Positions 2,819 through 9,580 of a DNA stretch of 64,000 nt are shown one piece after another. The notes beneath the pieces are model-generated. The model searched no databases and was not told the origin of the DNA. It saw only the letters and a program-made list of their open reading frames with translations. The DNA comes from Thermoanaerobaculia bacterium (GTDB taxonomy: Bacteria > Acidobacteriota > Thermoanaerobaculia > Gp7-AA8): positions 225 to 64,224 of the forward strand of contig DATISF010000064.1 in the NCBI GenBank assembly GCA_035468985.1. Reading direction: 5' to 3'. Numbering within the stretch: the first letter of the stretch is position 1; each line of letters opens with the position of its first letter. The position numbers were made by a program, and so were the translations under genes.

Positions 2819-3829
2819 TTGGCAAAGATCACGGCCGAATACATCTGGATCGACGGACAGAAGCCCACTGCCAAACTGCGATCGAAGACGAAGATCATCG
2901 ACGCGGTGAAGTCGCTCGCCGATATCCCTGACTGGGGTTACGACGGTTCGAGCACCTACCAGGCCACCGGCCACATGAGCGATTTGCAGCTCAAGCCGGT
3001 CAAGTACGTTCCCGATCCTCTCCATCGCGACGAGGATGTTCTGGTGCTCTGTGAGGTGCTCAACGCCGACGGCACCGTTCATCCCAGCAATACACGGGCG
3101 CGTTGCCGTCAGGTCGCGGAGAAGTTCAAGCAGCACGAGTCGTGGTTCGGCATCGAGCAGGAGTACACATTCTTCCAGGGCGCCCGTCCCCTGGGATGGC
3201 CCGACAGCGGATTCCCCGCGCCGCAGGGCGGGTACTACTGCGGCGTTGGCGCCGATGAAGTGTTCGGCCGCGACATCGTCGAGGCCCACACCGCGGCCTG
3301 CATGCGCGCCGGGCTGCACATCGTCGGCACGAATGCCGAAGTGATGCCGGGGCAGTGGGAGTTTCAGATCGGCGCGGTGGGTGCTCCCGAGGCCGCCGAC
3401 GACCTATGGCTTGCACGCTGGCTGCTGTATCGCATCGGCGAGGAGTTCGGCACGAGCGCGACGCTCTATCCGAAACCCGTCCGCGGCGACTGGAACGGCG
3501 CCGGCGCGCACACGAACTTCTCGACCAAAGCGATGCGCCAGGACGGCGGATTGAAAGTCATCGAAGAAGCGATGAAGAAGCTCGAGAAGCGCCACGAGGA
3601 TCACATCAAGGTCTACGGCGCACACAACGAGGAGCGCCTCACCGGCCAGCACGAGACCTCGCCAATGCACGCCTTCCGTTACGGCCAGTTCGACCGCGGC
3701 GCGTCGGTGCGCATTCCCATGCAAACGGTGAACGCAGGCAAGGGCTATTTCGAAGACCGCCGTCCGGCCGCGAACATGGATCCGTACGAAGTCTGCGCGA
3801 TTCTGATCGAGACCGTCTGCGGACCGTAG
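2819..3829 (+). CDS. glnII: Glutamine synthetase type II
   Basis: N-terminus MAKITAEYIWIDG typical of GSII; 336 aa; TTG start preceded by AAGGAGGA. Confidence 0.8.
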   Translation: MAKITAEYIWIDGQKPTAKLRSKTKIIDAVKSLADIPDWGYDGSSTYQATGHMSDLQLKPVKYVPDPLHRDEDVLVLCEVLNADGTVHPSNTRARCRQVAEKFKQHESWFGIEQEYTFFQGARPLGWPDSGFPAPQGGYYCGVGADEVFGRDIVEAHTAACMRAGLHIVGTNAEVMPGQWEFQIGAVGAPEAADDLWLARWLLYRIGEEFGTSATLYPKPVRGDWNGAGAHTNFSTKAMRQDGGLKVIEEAMKKLEKRHEDHIKVYGAHNEERLTGQHETSPMHAFRYGQFDRGASVRIPMQTVNAGKGYFEDRRPAANMDPYEVCAILIETVCGP

Positions 3830-3835
3830 TGTCAC

Positions 3836-3902
3836 GTCATCCTGAGCCGCGAAAACGGCGAAGGATCTCTTCGACGAGATCCTTCGCTTCGCTCAGGATG
3901 AC
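3836..3902. repeat. REP/MITE-like palindromic element copy A (core only)
   Basis: GTCATCCTGAGCCGCGAAAACGGCGAAGGATCTC...GAGATCCTTCGC...CTCAGGATGAC inverted repeat. Confidence 0.85.
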
Positions 3903-3977
3903 CATGGTCACCCTCGTCCTTCTCCTCGCGGGCTGCGCGCGAACTTCGGTTCCGCGCAGCCCGTCCGCGTCTCGACC

Positions 3978-4220
3978 GTGACTTGGATCGCAGTGGGCCA
4001 GCCACGAATCTCTGTCGGTTCATCCGGAGCATGTCGGAGCGGATCGCGCGTCGTGGTTGCCGGGCATTCGATGGGAGCGTACGCGGCGCTCGCGCCGGCC
4101 GGACTGGAAAACGGCGAGGAAACGTTTCGCGACCCTCCGCTGATGAACATCGCCGGCACGGCGGACATGAGTCTCGTCGACCGCGCTGTCCTCAGGTCGA
4201 CCGCGCTGTCCTCAGGCTGA
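3978..4220 (+). pseudogene. Fragment of alpha/beta-hydrolase domain paralogous to the 4716-7256 product
   Basis: SRVVVAGHSMGAYAALAPAGL...RDP aligns with SRVVVAGHSLGAYGVLAVAGL...RDP of downstream gene; only about 45 aa conserved, no N- or C-terminal context. Confidence 0.5.
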
Positions 4221-4302
4221 ATGGCGGCGGCATGGCGCGGCTCTTGGATGAAAACGCACGTCTGGAGATCCGGTAAACCTTTGCCGGTGTGGTTCGTCTA
4301 AG

Positions 4303-4635
4303 ATGTTGTCGATGGCTGAGTGGTTCCTGAACGTCGCCTGGTCCGGCATCGCGATCTTCGCCTTCGCGGTTCTTCTGCCGAAGGTTGACGCGCGCCGCCG
4401 GGTTGTCGGCGCTCTCGTCCTCGCCGGCGTGCTGGTGCTGCTCTTCCCCATCATCTCGATCTCCGATGACCTCAACGCCGATAGCGCTGCGCAGGAAGTC
4501 CTGGCCGTCATCTTCACCGTCGTCGGGCTGATCGTCGTTCTCGGCACGGCGCTTCGATTGACGCCGATCGCACCGCAGCGCCTCACGGTTGCCGCGGTCG
4601 AATCGTTCGATCCGCGCTCGCCGCCCCGCGGCTGA
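4303..4635 (+). CDS. Small hypothetical membrane protein (3 predicted TM)
   Basis: Hydrophobic segments only; no recognisable motif. Confidence 0.35.
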   Translation: MLSMAEWFLNVAWSGIAIFAFAVLLPKVDARRRVVGALVLAGVLVLLFPIISISDDLNADSAAQEVLAVIFTVVGLIVVLGTALRLTPIAPQRLTVAAVESFDPRSPPRG

Positions 4636-4715
4636 TCTTCGAGGCCGCTCGCGCGTCAGCGAGCACCGGCATCCCCGCCGGTCTGCACGGCGAATTCCTC
4701 TTATCGCCAGATGCG

Positions 4716-7256
4716 GTGCCATCACATTTCGGATCGGACCGGCGGGGTTGCGAGCGCTTGATGATCGAAGCGGTCATGCAATTGATCTGGGCGGCCGTGG
4801 TCGTGCTGCCGTTCGCATTCGTCCTGCCGCGGACGCGAGCGCGCCTGGTCCGGATGTGCACTCTCTTCGTACTCACTCCGATCGTCTTCGTCTCCATTGC
4901 CTGCGAGTGTGCATTCGGTGATCAAACGACCACGGCCGTCCGGCGGGATTCGCTCTATGCCCGGGCCGGCCCTTTCGCCGTTCGCGTCCGGCAGGATGAA
5001 TGGCTGGATGCAGGGCGCGGGCGGCGCCTGCCGGTGACGATCTACGAGCCGGTCGGCGCGCCGCGGCCGCTTCCGGCAGTCATCTTCTCGCACGGTCTCG
5101 CCAACGGCCGGGATGGCTACTCGTATCTCGGGCGGCACTGGGCGAGTCACGGCTATCTCTGCGTGCATCCCGAGCACGTCGGCGCCGCGCACGAGGTCGA
5201 AAGGGCCGGTCTCGTGGCGCTGTATCGCGCCGGAAACGATCACCGGTATTGGGAGATGTACCCGGAGGATCTCCGGTTCGTGACCGACCATCTGCGTACG
5301 ATGCCCGGCGTTGACTCCTCGCGCGTGGTCGTCGCCGGCCATTCACTCGGCGCTTATGGTGTGCTGGCCGTAGCGGGTCTCGATGTCGAGGGGCGATCGT
5401 ATCGGGATCCGCGCGTCGTGGCCGGAATTCCGATCTCCATGTCGGAAGACTTCGAGCCTGCCGCGTATCGGGCCATCGCCATTCCCCTGCTCCACATCAC
5501 AGGCACGCACGACTCGAGCATCGTCTACGGAACGCTTCCTCATCGGCGGCGGATGCCGTTCGACAGCACGTCTGCCGCGGACCAGTACCTTCTGACGATT
5601 CGCGGCGCGAATCACTCCACGCCGTCAGATGACGAGTCGGTTTCGAACAAGCTTGCCCACGATCTGATCCGCGCCGCGACGACGGCGTTCCTCGACGCGT
5701 ACCTTCGCCGAGACCCGGCGGCGAAGGCCTGGCTGCAGGGAGAGGGCCTGTCGCGGTTCGCGGCCGCGGACGCGCGGGTGGAGCGGAAGACCGAGGTCCC
5801 GCGGATCGGAAAGATCTCCGTCAATCCCGGCAGCCTCTTCTCGGACGAAGAGGCATCGCACGGCGCGCTGTACCAGGTGCTCAACCGCCTGCACACGAAC
5901 ACGCGCGCGGATCTCGTGCGCAGCTTTCTTCTCTTCCGCGAAGGCGAGGTCTACGACCCGGTGAAGATCGCCGAGAGCGAGAAGAATCTGCGGGCGCTCG
6001 ATTTCATCAAGACGGCGGCGATCTCCGTCACGCCCGTTCACGACGGCGTCGTCGATGTCCGCATCGTCACCGAAGACGAATGGACCAGCGATCCGAACGT
6101 CGACTTCGGCCGCGACCGCGGCGTGGCGACCTGGAATCTGAATTTCACCCAGAAGGATCTCGGCGGCAGCGGGGCGGAGGTCTCCGTCAGCAGCGGGCGT
6201 CTGCCGGAGCGGACCGAGAGCTCGATCGAGTTTCTCCATCCGGCGTTCCTGCGGCCGTATTGGAACGGCGATCTGCTTCTGGCCAAGCGCTCGGACGGCG
6301 CGGAGACGAAGTTCTCTCTCGCCCAGCCGTTCTATTCCTCATCGACCCCGTTCTCCTTCGAGATCTCCTCGGACAACGACTCGAAGGACATCCGCATCTT
6401 CCGCGATGGACGGCCGTTGGCGCGGTTTCACAGCCATGGCGTCGAGACGCGCGCCATCGCCGGCTGGGCATTGACCGGAGGGCCGGAATCGGCTGCGCGG
6501 ATCTTCGGCGGCTTCGACTTCGTCAACGATCAGTTTCATGGAGTGATCGGCGGGTTCACCCCTCTGCCGCGACGATATCGGTGGACGGTTCTCGGATTCG
6601 AGATCGCACGCGAAAATCTGGTCAAGGTCGATTACGTCGATCACGATGCGCGGTACGACGATTTCGATCTCGGCTCGCGCCTGTCCATGCAGGCGGGGAC
6701 GTCGCGGACCGCGAACGAGCTGACCGCGCGCTTTCAATCGGGCCTGCGGCTCGGGGAACGAGCCTTCCTGCTTCCGCGGGTCTCGTTCGGCTCACGCTTC
6801 GGTCCGCGGGCCGAGAACGAGATCACCTCCGCCTCGATCAAATTGATCTGGCGCTCGGATCTTCTCTCCCCGCAGACGCTCGTATCGCGGCTGCAGATCG
6901 ACGAGGGACGCCGCCTCGATCGCGACGTTCAGTTCTTTGCCGATGCGCTGCATGGGCTGCGCGGCTATCCGGCGTATGCATTCGAGGGCCACCAGGCCGT
7001 CGTGGCCAACGTCGAGGACCGTCTGTTCCTCGGTCGCGAATTGCTGCACCTGTTCGCTCCGGGACTGGCGTTGTTCGCTGACGCCGGCAAGGCCGGCCTC
7101 AGCGGTGTGAAGAGCGATTTCGGCGCCGGCCTGCGCATGGCCATCCCGCGCGCCGACTCGACCATGCTGCGATTCGATCTCGCCTATGCGCTGCAGAACA
7201 GTCCAATCAGCCGCCGGGGATTCGTCGTTTCCTTCGCCACATCGCAGGCATTCTGA
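4716..7256 (+). CDS. Alpha/beta-hydrolase (lipase/esterase, PAF-acetylhydrolase/chlorophyllase-like) fused to POTRA + Omp85-type 16-strand beta-barrel (type Vd-like autotransporter)
   Basis: N-terminal domain with PAVIFSHGL and nucleophile elbow VVVAGHSLGAY; POTRA-like LFREGEVYDPVKIAESEKNLRALDFIKTAAISV; C-terminal barrel ending ...LRFDLAYALQ...VVSFATSQAF; GTG 4716 or ATG 4761 start. Confidence 0.7.
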   Translation: MPSHFGSDRRGCERLMIEAVMQLIWAAVVVLPFAFVLPRTRARLVRMCTLFVLTPIVFVSIACECAFGDQTTTAVRRDSLYARAGPFAVRVRQDEWLDAGRGRRLPVTIYEPVGAPRPLPAVIFSHGLANGRDGYSYLGRHWASHGYLCVHPEHVGAAHEVERAGLVALYRAGNDHRYWEMYPEDLRFVTDHLRTMPGVDSSRVVVAGHSLGAYGVLAVAGLDVEGRSYRDPRVVAGIPISMSEDFEPAAYRAIAIPLLHITGTHDSSIVYGTLPHRRRMPFDSTSAADQYLLTIRGANHSTPSDDESVSNKLAHDLIRAATTAFLDAYLRRDPAAKAWLQGEGLSRFAAADARVERKTEVPRIGKISVNPGSLFSDEEASHGALYQVLNRLHTNTRADLVRSFLLFREGEVYDPVKIAESEKNLRALDFIKTAAISVTPVHDGVVDVRIVTEDEWTSDPNVDFGRDRGVATWNLNFTQKDLGGSGAEVSVSSGRLPERTESSIEFLHPAFLRPYWNGDLLLAKRSDGAETKFSLAQPFYSSSTPFSFEISSDNDSKDIRIFRDGRPLARFHSHGVETRAIAGWALTGGPESAARIFGGFDFVNDQFHGVIGGFTPLPRRYRWTVLGFEIARENLVKVDYVDHDARYDDFDLGSRLSMQAGTSRTANELTARFQSGLRLGERAFLLPRVSFGSRFGPRAENEITSASIKLIWRSDLLSPQTLVSRLQIDEGRRLDRDVQFFADALHGLRGYPAYAFEGHQAVVANVEDRLFLGRELLHLFAPGLALFADAGKAGLSGVKSDFGAGLRMAIPRADSTMLRFDLAYALQNSPISRRGFVVSFATSQAF

Positions 7257-7268
7257 TCAGGAGTGAGC

Positions 7269-7850
7269 ATGAAACGCATTCTTCCTCTGCTTCTGTTCAT
7301 TGCGTTGCCGCTGCTCGGCGCGGACCCGCGCGCGGAAATCGGCGTGTCGATGTTCGGGGGCACAGCGGCCGGATTCGGGTCGCTGACCCCGACCGCGTGG
7401 CGCGTGCACGAGGGGCGCGGTGCCGGCGCGCGGCTGACCGTATTCCTGAACGAATCGATCGGCGCGGCCATCGATTTCGGCAGGCAGCGCATCGAGAGTC
7501 GTGCGGGAGCAATGACGAGCGACTCGCACGCGCTCCCCGAGGCGGTGATGCTCGACTGGTATGGCGCACCGCATGCCCGCGTGGTGGCCTATCTCGGCGC
7601 CGGTGCCTCGTATCTGAAGTACCGGCAGAATCACGTGACGGCCGACGGCCAGCTCGACCAGCCCGATCACGGCGCGCTCATGACTGAGGCAGGAGTGAAG
7701 TACCTCCTGTCCTCGAGGTGGCGCCTGAACACCGGATTGCGATTCGGCCCGGCACGCTCGACGGCAGAAGTGAACCACGCCGCCGGCCAGGTCGAGCGCA
7801 TCGATTTCCACCAGTTCTACCTCTCCGGCGGAGTCGGCTACTGCTTCTGA
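7269..7850 (+). CDS. Small outer-membrane beta-barrel protein (OmpA-like N-terminal barrel/OmpW-like)
   Basis: Signal peptide, alternating amphipathic pattern, C-terminal ...GGVGYCF; AGGAG 6 nt upstream of ATG. Confidence 0.6.
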   Translation: MKRILPLLLFIALPLLGADPRAEIGVSMFGGTAAGFGSLTPTAWRVHEGRGAGARLTVFLNESIGAAIDFGRQRIESRAGAMTSDSHALPEAVMLDWYGAPHARVVAYLGAGASYLKYRQNHVTADGQLDQPDHGALMTEAGVKYLLSSRWRLNTGLRFGPARSTAEVNHAAGQVERIDFHQFYLSGGVGYCF

Positions 7851-7854
7851 CTTA

Positions 7855-7996
7855 GGGAAGCTCTGAGAACGTCGTTGTTCACGTCATCCTGAGCCGCGAA
7901 GACGGCGAAGGATCTCGAAATGGCAGGCGGTTTCGGATCCTGAGATCCTTCGTCGCGCTTCGCCGACTCAGGATGACGACTTGTTCAGAGGTTCCC
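7855..7996. repeat. REP/MITE-like element copy B (full length with outer inverted repeat GGGAAGCTCTGAGAAC...GTTCAGAGGTTCCC)
   Basis: Direct reading; lies between convergent gene ends. Confidence 0.85.
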
Positions 7997-8056
7997 CTAC
8001 GGGGGCGCACCGTCGCCCGTGGGCAGGGGATCCCTCGCTGCGCTCGGGATGACGCT

Positions 8057-9580
8057 CTACTTCACCGTCATGGAGGGCACCGACAACAGGAATCCCGACG
8101 GATACATCTGGAAGCCCTCGATGTTCTTGCGCATGATCGCGACGTTGTCGCGGTGATAGAGCGAGATGTACGGCATCTCATCGGCCAGGATTTTCTGGAT
8201 CTCGTCGTAGGCCGCCTTGCGCTTCGTGCGGTCGAACGTCGAACGCCCCTGCATGATCAGCTGATCGACGCGCGGATTCACGTAGTACCCGCGGTTCTGC
8301 CCGTTCGGGGCCAGGCTCGAGGAGTGAAAGATCGTGTAGTAGAAGTCGGGATCGGAGATGCCCGATCTCCGCAATGAGAACATCTGGAAGCGGCCGTTCT
8401 TGATGTCCTCCATGAACGTGCCGAACTCGCTCGTCTGGATCTGCATGTCGATGCCGACTTCCTTCAGCATCTGCTGGATCATCTCCGCCTGCTGATTGGC
8501 CTCGGCGTCGGTCGATGTGCGGAAGGTCAGCTTGAACCGCGGCTGTCCCTTGTAGCCGGCCGCGTCCAGCATCTGCTTCGCCCTGGCCGGATCGTAGTCG
8601 AAGGACGGGAGATTCTCGGCGCGGGCCCAGTGGCCCGGCGGGAACATCGTGTCGGTCACCGAGCCGTACCCGTGCAGGAGATCGCGGACGATGCGATTGC
8701 GGTCGATGGCGTGGGCGATGGCCTGACGCACCTGCTTCTTGCTCAGGACGGGATCGTGAAGGTTGAAGCAGATGTACTGATAGGCGCCGCCATGGGAGGT
8801 CATGACGTTGAAGTCCGAGTTCTTCTTGAATTGCTCGACCTGGTCGAACGGGATGCTGTTGATCTCGAAATTCACCGTGCCGCGACGCAGCTCGAGCACG
8901 CGCGTGGTGGCGTCGGGGATGATTCGCACCGTCACGTTCGGCACGTTCGGCTTTCCGCCGACCCAGCCGTCGAACGCCTGCAGCGTCACGCGCTCATCGG
9001 CGCGAAACTCGGTCACCTTGTACGCGCCGGCCAGCACCGGCTGTTTGCCGAACACGTTCGGATCGGCTCCCTGCGGCACGAGCATGAACGGGAAGTTGTC
9101 GAAGATGCCGGCGTTCGGCTCTTTCAATTTGATGACGAACGTGTGGTCGTCGGGAGCATCGAACGAGGCCACGGCCGTGTAGCCCGATCGCTTCGGACTG
9201 TTGAAGCTCTCGGCCATCATCGAGTCGAACGTGTACTTGAAGTCTTTCGATGTGACCGGCCGCCCGTCCTGGAACTTCGCATTGGGATTGAGGTGGAAGA
9301 CGATCGTCTTGTCGTCCGGCGTCTCCCACTTTTCGGCGACGTCGCCCGTGAAGTCGCCGGCCGGCGTCAGCTTGATCAGCCCTGACGCCGTCATGTCCCA
9401 GATGCGGCCCGAGTAGGTGTCGGTGCCGATGCGGGGATCGAGGTTGGTCGGACTGCCGTCGAAGGCGATCACCAGCCCTTGTGCCTCTCCACCTGCTCCT
9501 CCCCCCGCTTTCCTTTCGCCGCCGGCGCAGGCGACGAGCACAACCAGGGAGAGGATGGCCGCCAGATCTCGCCTTCGCAT
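8057..9580 (-). CDS. ABC transporter substrate-binding protein, family 5 (peptide/nickel, DppA/OppA-like) lipoprotein
   Basis: Signal plus lipobox MRRRDLAAILSLVVLVACAGG; family-5 SBP-like domain; start set at internal ATG 9580. Confidence 0.75.
   Translation of the reverse strand: MRRRDLAAILSLVVLVACAGGERKAGGGAGGEAQGLVIAFDGSPTNLDPRIGTDTYSGRIWDMTASGLIKLTPAGDFTGDVAEKWETPDDKTIVFHLNPNAKFQDGRPVTSKDFKYTFDSMMAESFNSPKRSGYTAVASFDAPDDHTFVIKLKEPNAGIFDNFPFMLVPQGADPNVFGKQPVLAGAYKVTEFRADERVTLQAFDGWVGGKPNVPNVTVRIIPDATTRVLELRRGTVNFEINSIPFDQVEQFKKNSDFNVMTSHGGAYQYICFNLHDPVLSKKQVRQAIAHAIDRNRIVRDLLHGYGSVTDTMFPPGHWARAENLPSFDYDPARAKQMLDAAGYKGQPRFKLTFRTSTDAEANQQAEMIQQMLKEVGIDMQIQTSEFGTFMEDIKNGRFQMFSLRRSGISDPDFYYTIFHSSSLAPNGQNRGYYVNPRVDQLIMQGRSTFDRTKRKAAYDEIQKILADEMPYISLYHRDNVAIMRKNIEGFQMYPSGFLLSVPSMTVK

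Follow-up and report, generated by a model that had tools for sequence, protein, structure and literature searches.

In the 64,000-nucleotide window, which is the whole stretch of DNA analysed here, a single open reading frame of 846 codons runs from a GTG at 4716 to a stop codon ending at 7256 on the forward (+) strand, on which all features described below also lie. Its product, which ends in TSQAF, consists of a hydrolase domain, a POTRA domain, and an Omp85-type β-barrel. The host is an uncultured soil-type bacterium of the Thermoanaerobaculia. Re-checking of the coordinates recovered both the frame and the motifs PAVIFSHGL and VVVAGHSLGAY, as the original prediction had given them. The genuine start codon probably lies 3′ of 4716. 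From the start chosen by NCBI (ATG 4761), the product has 831 amino acids and is identical to the hypothetical protein HSP16859.1 of a Thermoanaerobaculia MAG, whereas with GTG 4797, GTG 4803, or ATG 4854 as the start codon, the lipoprotein signal peptide that ends in the lipobox VSIAC would be cleaner. As read from the sequence, a probable signal peptide h-region spans 4854–4904 and ends in this lipobox (4890–4904), its start being uncertain among 4761, 4797, 4803, and 4854. With Glu as the next residue, the lipobox is not of the textbook form. Lipobox-like N-termini, e.g., FVAGC, LFTSC, FAASC, and VAAGC, were found in 13 of 27 homologues, and others look SPase-I-like; a signal peptide of the lipoprotein type is probable for the query protein as well. 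A promoter and terminator scan of positions 3800–8200 gave no signal exceeding shuffled expectation.

The N-terminal domain (4956–5786) is an α/β-hydrolase of the PAF-acetylhydrolase (PAF-AH), cutinase-PETase, and chlorophyllase group. Over residues 77–308, the Pfam families PAF-AH_p_II (E = 1.8e-8) and PETase (E = 1.8e-7) both match above their curated cut-offs, and Foldseek searches with the N-terminal half of the model returned PETases, cutinases, and lipases. The oxyanion-hole region FSHGL (5085–5099), with S, H, and G invariant among the homologues, corresponds to a PAF-AH_p_II match at residues 104–154. It is followed by the nucleophile elbow GHSLG (5337–5351), which carries the catalytic Ser210 (846-aa numbering; codon 5343–5345), by the invariant Asp266 in TGTHDSS (5511–5513), and by the invariant His300 in GANHSTP (5613–5615). 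These align with GHSMG, GENDS, and GASHFFP, respectively, of the cutinase-like lipase 7ykq, whose Ser, Asp, and His residues match the query triad. The segments GHSLG, TGTHD, and ANHST are unchanged in all 27 homologues; fold, GxSxG elbow, and triad, in the canonical order Ser-Asp-His, are thus all conserved. Judged by these residues, the domain looks like an active esterase or lipase of the PAF-acetylhydrolase/cutinase type. The original prediction of a non-patatin enzyme of the PAF-AH, chlorophyllase, and dienelactone-hydrolase class is borne out by the Pfam matches and by the fold and triad alignment, which place the cutinases in the same company. A patatin match, which would have overturned it, was absent from the Pfam and NCBIfam results at E ≤ 1. 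The protein shares its fold, FSHGL-type oxyanion region, GHSxG elbow, and triad order with PAF-acetylhydrolases, family-III lipases, and the cutinase-PETase enzymes, but sequence identity to them is only 17–27%. The former are soluble proteins, for the most part secreted, whereas the query enzyme is tethered to a membrane barrel.

The tether is short. According to the alignment and to DSSP, five residues, KTEVP (5787–5801), connect the last hydrolase element to the first POTRA strand; across the homologues the linker has 3–8 residues, and the split genes described below break exactly here. The POTRA domain itself (5802–6077) is recognized by Pfam, NCBIfam, the AlphaFold model, HMM alignment, and DCA contacts within the domain. 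In the model it forms one β-α-α-β-β unit at residues 348–439 (831-aa numbering). Although the Pfam POTRA match is weak in the query (E = 0.016, residues 396–446), the NCBIfam BamA profile matches residues 394–526 at 2.1e-11, PF07244 (POTRA) is on record for several relatives, and the domain aligns with POTRA5 of BamA and POTRA3 of TamA. What had been described as a POTRA-like segment is therefore a single POTRA, and exactly one such domain lies between enzyme and barrel, as in the type Vd arrangement. No ShlB, POTRA_2, or TPS-domain signature was found with the Pfam and NCBIfam profiles.

The C-terminal half (6087–7253) carries the hallmarks of an Omp85-type barrel, their invariance having been counted in an alignment of 27 sequences. 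The L6-equivalent loop (6912–6992) contains the motif LRGY (6957–6968), which aligns with IRGY of TamA and VRGF of BamA; G, L, R, Y, and P are invariant, and many members have LRAY in its place. FADAG (7074–7088), located on the second of the strands that follow the loop, represents the (F/G)xDxG motif, with F, D, and G invariant and with FVDSG of TamA and FWDMG of BamA as counterparts. The protein ends in a terminal aromatic β-signal, TSQAF (7239–7253), of which T.QAF is invariant. Profile and Foldseek matches of this half are to TamA and BamA, with NCBIfam scores all far under the family cut-offs. The L6 motif, the (F/G)xDxG motif, the N-terminal POTRA, and the terminal Phe together support the earlier assignment of an Omp85-type C-terminal barrel with an aromatic end.

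Omp85 proteins are core machines of outer-membrane biogenesis, and the prevailing view has given them 16 strands without exception and no function besides protein assembly or translocation. A barrel of 16 strands was also expected here by the original prediction, but models and covariation indicate 20. The AlphaFold model (mean pLDDT 77.7) shows the POTRA followed by an all-β domain, its inter-domain geometry being of low confidence (pTM 0.57). DSSP applied to two such models gave 15 strands before and five after the LRGY loop, as against 11 before L6 and five after in a 16-stranded barrel. By HMM anchoring, some 100 additional residues fall between β4 and β7 of BamA and TamA. Relative to these proteins, the extras are four very long strands, b7–b10 (6351–6641; 18–24 residues each, pLDDT 74–95), as delimited by DSSP, by anchoring to E. 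coli BamA and TamA, and by covariation ladders from b6-b7 through b10-b11. Covariation among 215 sequences backs all 19 consecutive hairpins (p = 5e-12 over non-adjacent pairs) and hints at b1-b20 closure of the barrel (4.4). The possibility that 16 strands form the barrel while four make an excursion outside the membrane is not supported by covariation, as b6-b11 scores 1.9 compared with 4.5 for b6-b7 and 6.4 for b10-b11. Models, HMM anchoring, and covariation therefore all point to a predicted barrel of 20 strands. A literature search for 20-stranded Omp85 proteins returned nothing relevant.

The same hydrolase-POTRA-barrel architecture was found in about 38 homologue clusters. A frameshift or misassembly in the MAG could in principle have fused two separate genes, and split versions do occur in related genomes. 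However, many independent assemblies contain full-length homologues (41–58% identity) whose frame runs unbroken over the junction, the roughly 38 independent clusters come from differing studies and assemblers yet share the same continuous ORF and conserved junction, and in the split versions the junction is another one, consisting of a stop codon and a new signal peptide. An artefact, which the original prediction had named as a possible refutation, is thus extremely improbable, and the homologous sequences indicate that the fusion is real and selected. In the split loci L010 and L012, a gene for a lipoprotein hydrolase (lipoboxes LLTAC and LLGAC) ends exactly at the junction and is followed, after a 4-bp overlap or a 99-bp gap, by a barrel gene that carries a separate Sec signal. 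Split pairs are present in the assemblies GCA_041483175.1 and GCA_036390755.1. In the tree, the query barrel groups with these split forms, and hydrolase-linked barrels make up a clade of their own in which fusion and fission have recurred. The coexistence in nature of fused and split forms offers a ready-made test of an enzyme-barrel complex.

POTRA domains sit in the periplasm. As the enzyme is joined to its POTRA by a five-residue tether, it is most likely located at the outer membrane, on its periplasmic side. This topology is backed by the 3–8-residue linkers, the lipoboxes in 13 of the 27 homologues and in the query, the split lipoprotein hydrolases, and the precedent of PlpD, whose patatin domain was found experimentally to be periplasmic (PMC11116518). 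With modest confidence, we lean towards a single outer-membrane protein that combines a probable lipoprotein signal peptide, an active-looking esterase, and a POTRA/Omp85 barrel, and whose enzyme would face the periplasm while anchored to the outer membrane. The barrel, and probably an N-terminal lipid anchor as well, would hold the enzyme at the membrane. Its substrate, lying at the outer membrane or within it, would be an ester-linked lipid or another hydrophobic ester, and its hydrolysis would be part of membrane-lipid housekeeping or remodelling. The barrel would serve as a membrane dock, perhaps also as a route of lipid access, and not as a secretion pore. Such a logic would resemble that now proposed for PlpD, reached with an unrelated enzyme. 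Of this picture, the domain architecture, the catalytic residues, the Omp85 hallmarks, the pattern of fusion and fission, and the distribution of the family are shown by the sequence data, whereas the topology, the lipid nature of the substrate, and the task of the barrel are inferred.

The genes on either side are conserved. Upstream (4303–4635) lies a gene for a 110-aa membrane protein with about three transmembrane segments, the motif LLFPIISISDD, and a C-terminal DPRSPPRG; of about 15 hydrolase-bearing loci that could be assessed, 13 have it beside the hydrolase, against none of about 65 loci with stand-alone barrels. Downstream, 7 bp past the stop codon, an OmpW-family gene (7263–7850; Pfam OmpW, 1.6e-7) encodes an eight-stranded barrel. 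OmpW is adjacent in six distinct hydrolase-bearing loci, one of them with an unrelated context and the opposite orientation.

OmpW also fits the uptake of products hydrolysed outside the cell, which is one counter-point to the periplasmic model; another is that the closest structural relatives of the enzyme, i.e., cutinases, PETases, and family-III lipases, are typically extracellular. Both would suit a type Vd- or Vb-like system for secretion or surface display, in which the barrel carries the hydrolase, whether fused to it or encoded apart as a lipoprotein partner, to the cell surface, where external esters, lipids, or polyesters are degraded and OmpW imports the hydrophobic products. The secreted nature of the nearest folds and the recurrence of OmpW in six loci would then be explained, the two-gene layout of the split loci is superficially like that of TpsA/TpsB, and a predicted 20-stranded barrel would provide a wider lumen. 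However, a linker of 3–8 residues cannot cross the membrane while the POTRA is kept in the periplasm, and there is only one POTRA, with neither ShlB/POTRA_2 nor TPS-domain signatures. Among Omp85 proteins, none is known to export a folded α/β-hydrolase. Moreover, PlpD, the sole studied analogue, keeps its enzyme in the periplasm (PMC11116518). Secretion is thus unlikely, and the original description of the protein as an autotransporter is not supported, given the short linker KTEVP, the lipobox in about half of the family, the split orthologues, and the periplasmic domain of PlpD. The split loci do resemble type Vb systems in having the gene for an exported protein beside that for an Omp85-family barrel, but they differ in having no TPS domain or β-helix cargo, a single BamA-type POTRA instead of two POTRA_2 domains, and a lipoprotein enzyme as cargo.

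The periplasmic dock proposed here must also be weighed against the breadth of the barrel family, which is large (804 representatives at E ≤ 1e-30) and consists mostly of stand-alone, single-POTRA proteins of Acidobacteriota. The barrel could primarily be an assembly or lipid-transfer factor like BamA or TamA, inserting OmpW or a lipoprotein, for example, with the hydrolase as a passenger of accessory or regulatory function that acts on something other than membrane lipids (e.g., as a polyester, peptidoglycan-ester, or xenobiotic esterase) and simply resides at the outer membrane. The abundance of stand-alone members, 29 of 60 of which adjoin AdoHcyase without an enzyme partner, the sequence and fold matches to BamA and TamA, and the label BamA that some sources attach to relatives are all in line with this. 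On the other hand, no TamB/AsmA-like or Bam lipoprotein gene was linked to the stand-alone barrels in 60 upstream and 44 downstream ORFs, and further enzyme domains, PAP2 or BNR_4, are fused to other members of the family. The separate clade of hydrolase-linked barrels with its repeated fusion and fission argues for a direct physical partnership of enzyme and barrel. An assembly factor with an incidental passenger is accordingly quite unlikely. A general enzyme partner for the stand-alone barrels was also sought and rejected, as their 60 upstream ORFs revealed only the AdoHcyase synteny and the 44 downstream ORFs no recurrent family. Because most stand-alone barrels have no enzyme partner, the barrel should have an additional function of its own, beyond the present explanation.

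Comparison with BamA and TamA, the best sequence and fold matches of the C-terminal half, shows what is shared, i.e., a POTRA-barrel order, an L6 motif of the form (V/I/L)RG(Y/F), the (F/G)xDxG motif, and a terminal aromatic residue. The query differs from them in having one POTRA instead of five or three, no Bam or TamB partners nearby, and about 100 additional residues that form the four extra long strands. PlpD of P. aeruginosa and FplA of F. nucleatum are closer in layout, as they also combine an N-terminal lipolytic-type enzyme, a short linker, one POTRA, and a C-terminal barrel of the Omp85 superfamily, and the logic of an enzyme held to the outer membrane from the periplasmic side is likely common to PlpD and the query (PMC11116518). 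However, they use the Ser-Asp dyad of patatins in place of a canonical Ser-Asp-His triad, and the query family has many probable lipoproteins, split two-gene forms, and a barrel predicted to have 20 strands rather than 16. Of the original proposal of a type Vd-like protein, the enzyme-POTRA-barrel order holds, but a chassis in common with PlpD is not supported, since neither the nearest 150 representatives nor the best 120 word-indexed matches included a patatin-fused protein. On this basis, the resemblance to PlpD looks convergent.

Taken further, and with somewhat less than even confidence, these proteins may represent a large undescribed branch of Omp85, found mostly in Acidobacteriota and comprising no fewer than 800 representative clusters, that has gained four strands to reach a 20-stranded barrel and acts as a modular outer-membrane dock for periplasmic enzymes. 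The α/β-hydrolase would be docked by fusion or as a separate lipoprotein, PAP2 or BNR_4 would take its place in other members, and the hydrolase form would be a convergent counterpart of PlpD in outer-membrane lipid homeostasis. OMPLA/PldA, PagP, PagL, and LpxR hydrolyse or transfer acyl esters at the outer membrane, and in these the barrel itself is the enzyme. To them the query could be a functional analogue only, as it carries a separate soluble-type domain on its barrel and has no sequence relationship with them. Omp85 subfamilies with other N-terminal domains, such as metallophosphoesterase and WD40-like domains, have been described in a survey in which no subfamily with a hydrolase, lipase, or esterase domain figures (Heinz & Lithgow 2014, PMC4104836). 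Those proteins share with the query an Omp85 barrel and an extra N-terminal functional domain, whereas the extra domains of the present family are α/β-hydrolase, PAP2, and BNR_4. No description of an Omp85 protein fused to an α/β-hydrolase or lipase domain was found in the literature.

PlpD, in which an Omp85 barrel anchors a periplasmic lipase, recently broke the functional rule for these proteins, and if another lipolytic enzyme of independent evolutionary origin sits on an Omp85-type barrel, its design becomes a general one and not a curiosity. If the prediction of 20 strands holds, the query would be the first Omp85 relative with another barrel size, which would bear on how the barrel can expand without upsetting its lateral gate and L6 lock. 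The enzyme domain adds to the cutinase/PETase-like group a membrane-tethered member from an uncultured phylum. The lipid flavour of the neighbourhood, which favours a lipid-related role of the enzyme, is anecdotal, as different genes occur in different loci: besides OmpW in six loci, a PAP2+LssY_C gene 2 bp downstream in locus L007, a CDP-alcohol phosphatidyltransferase gene in L002, and VirJ in L001.

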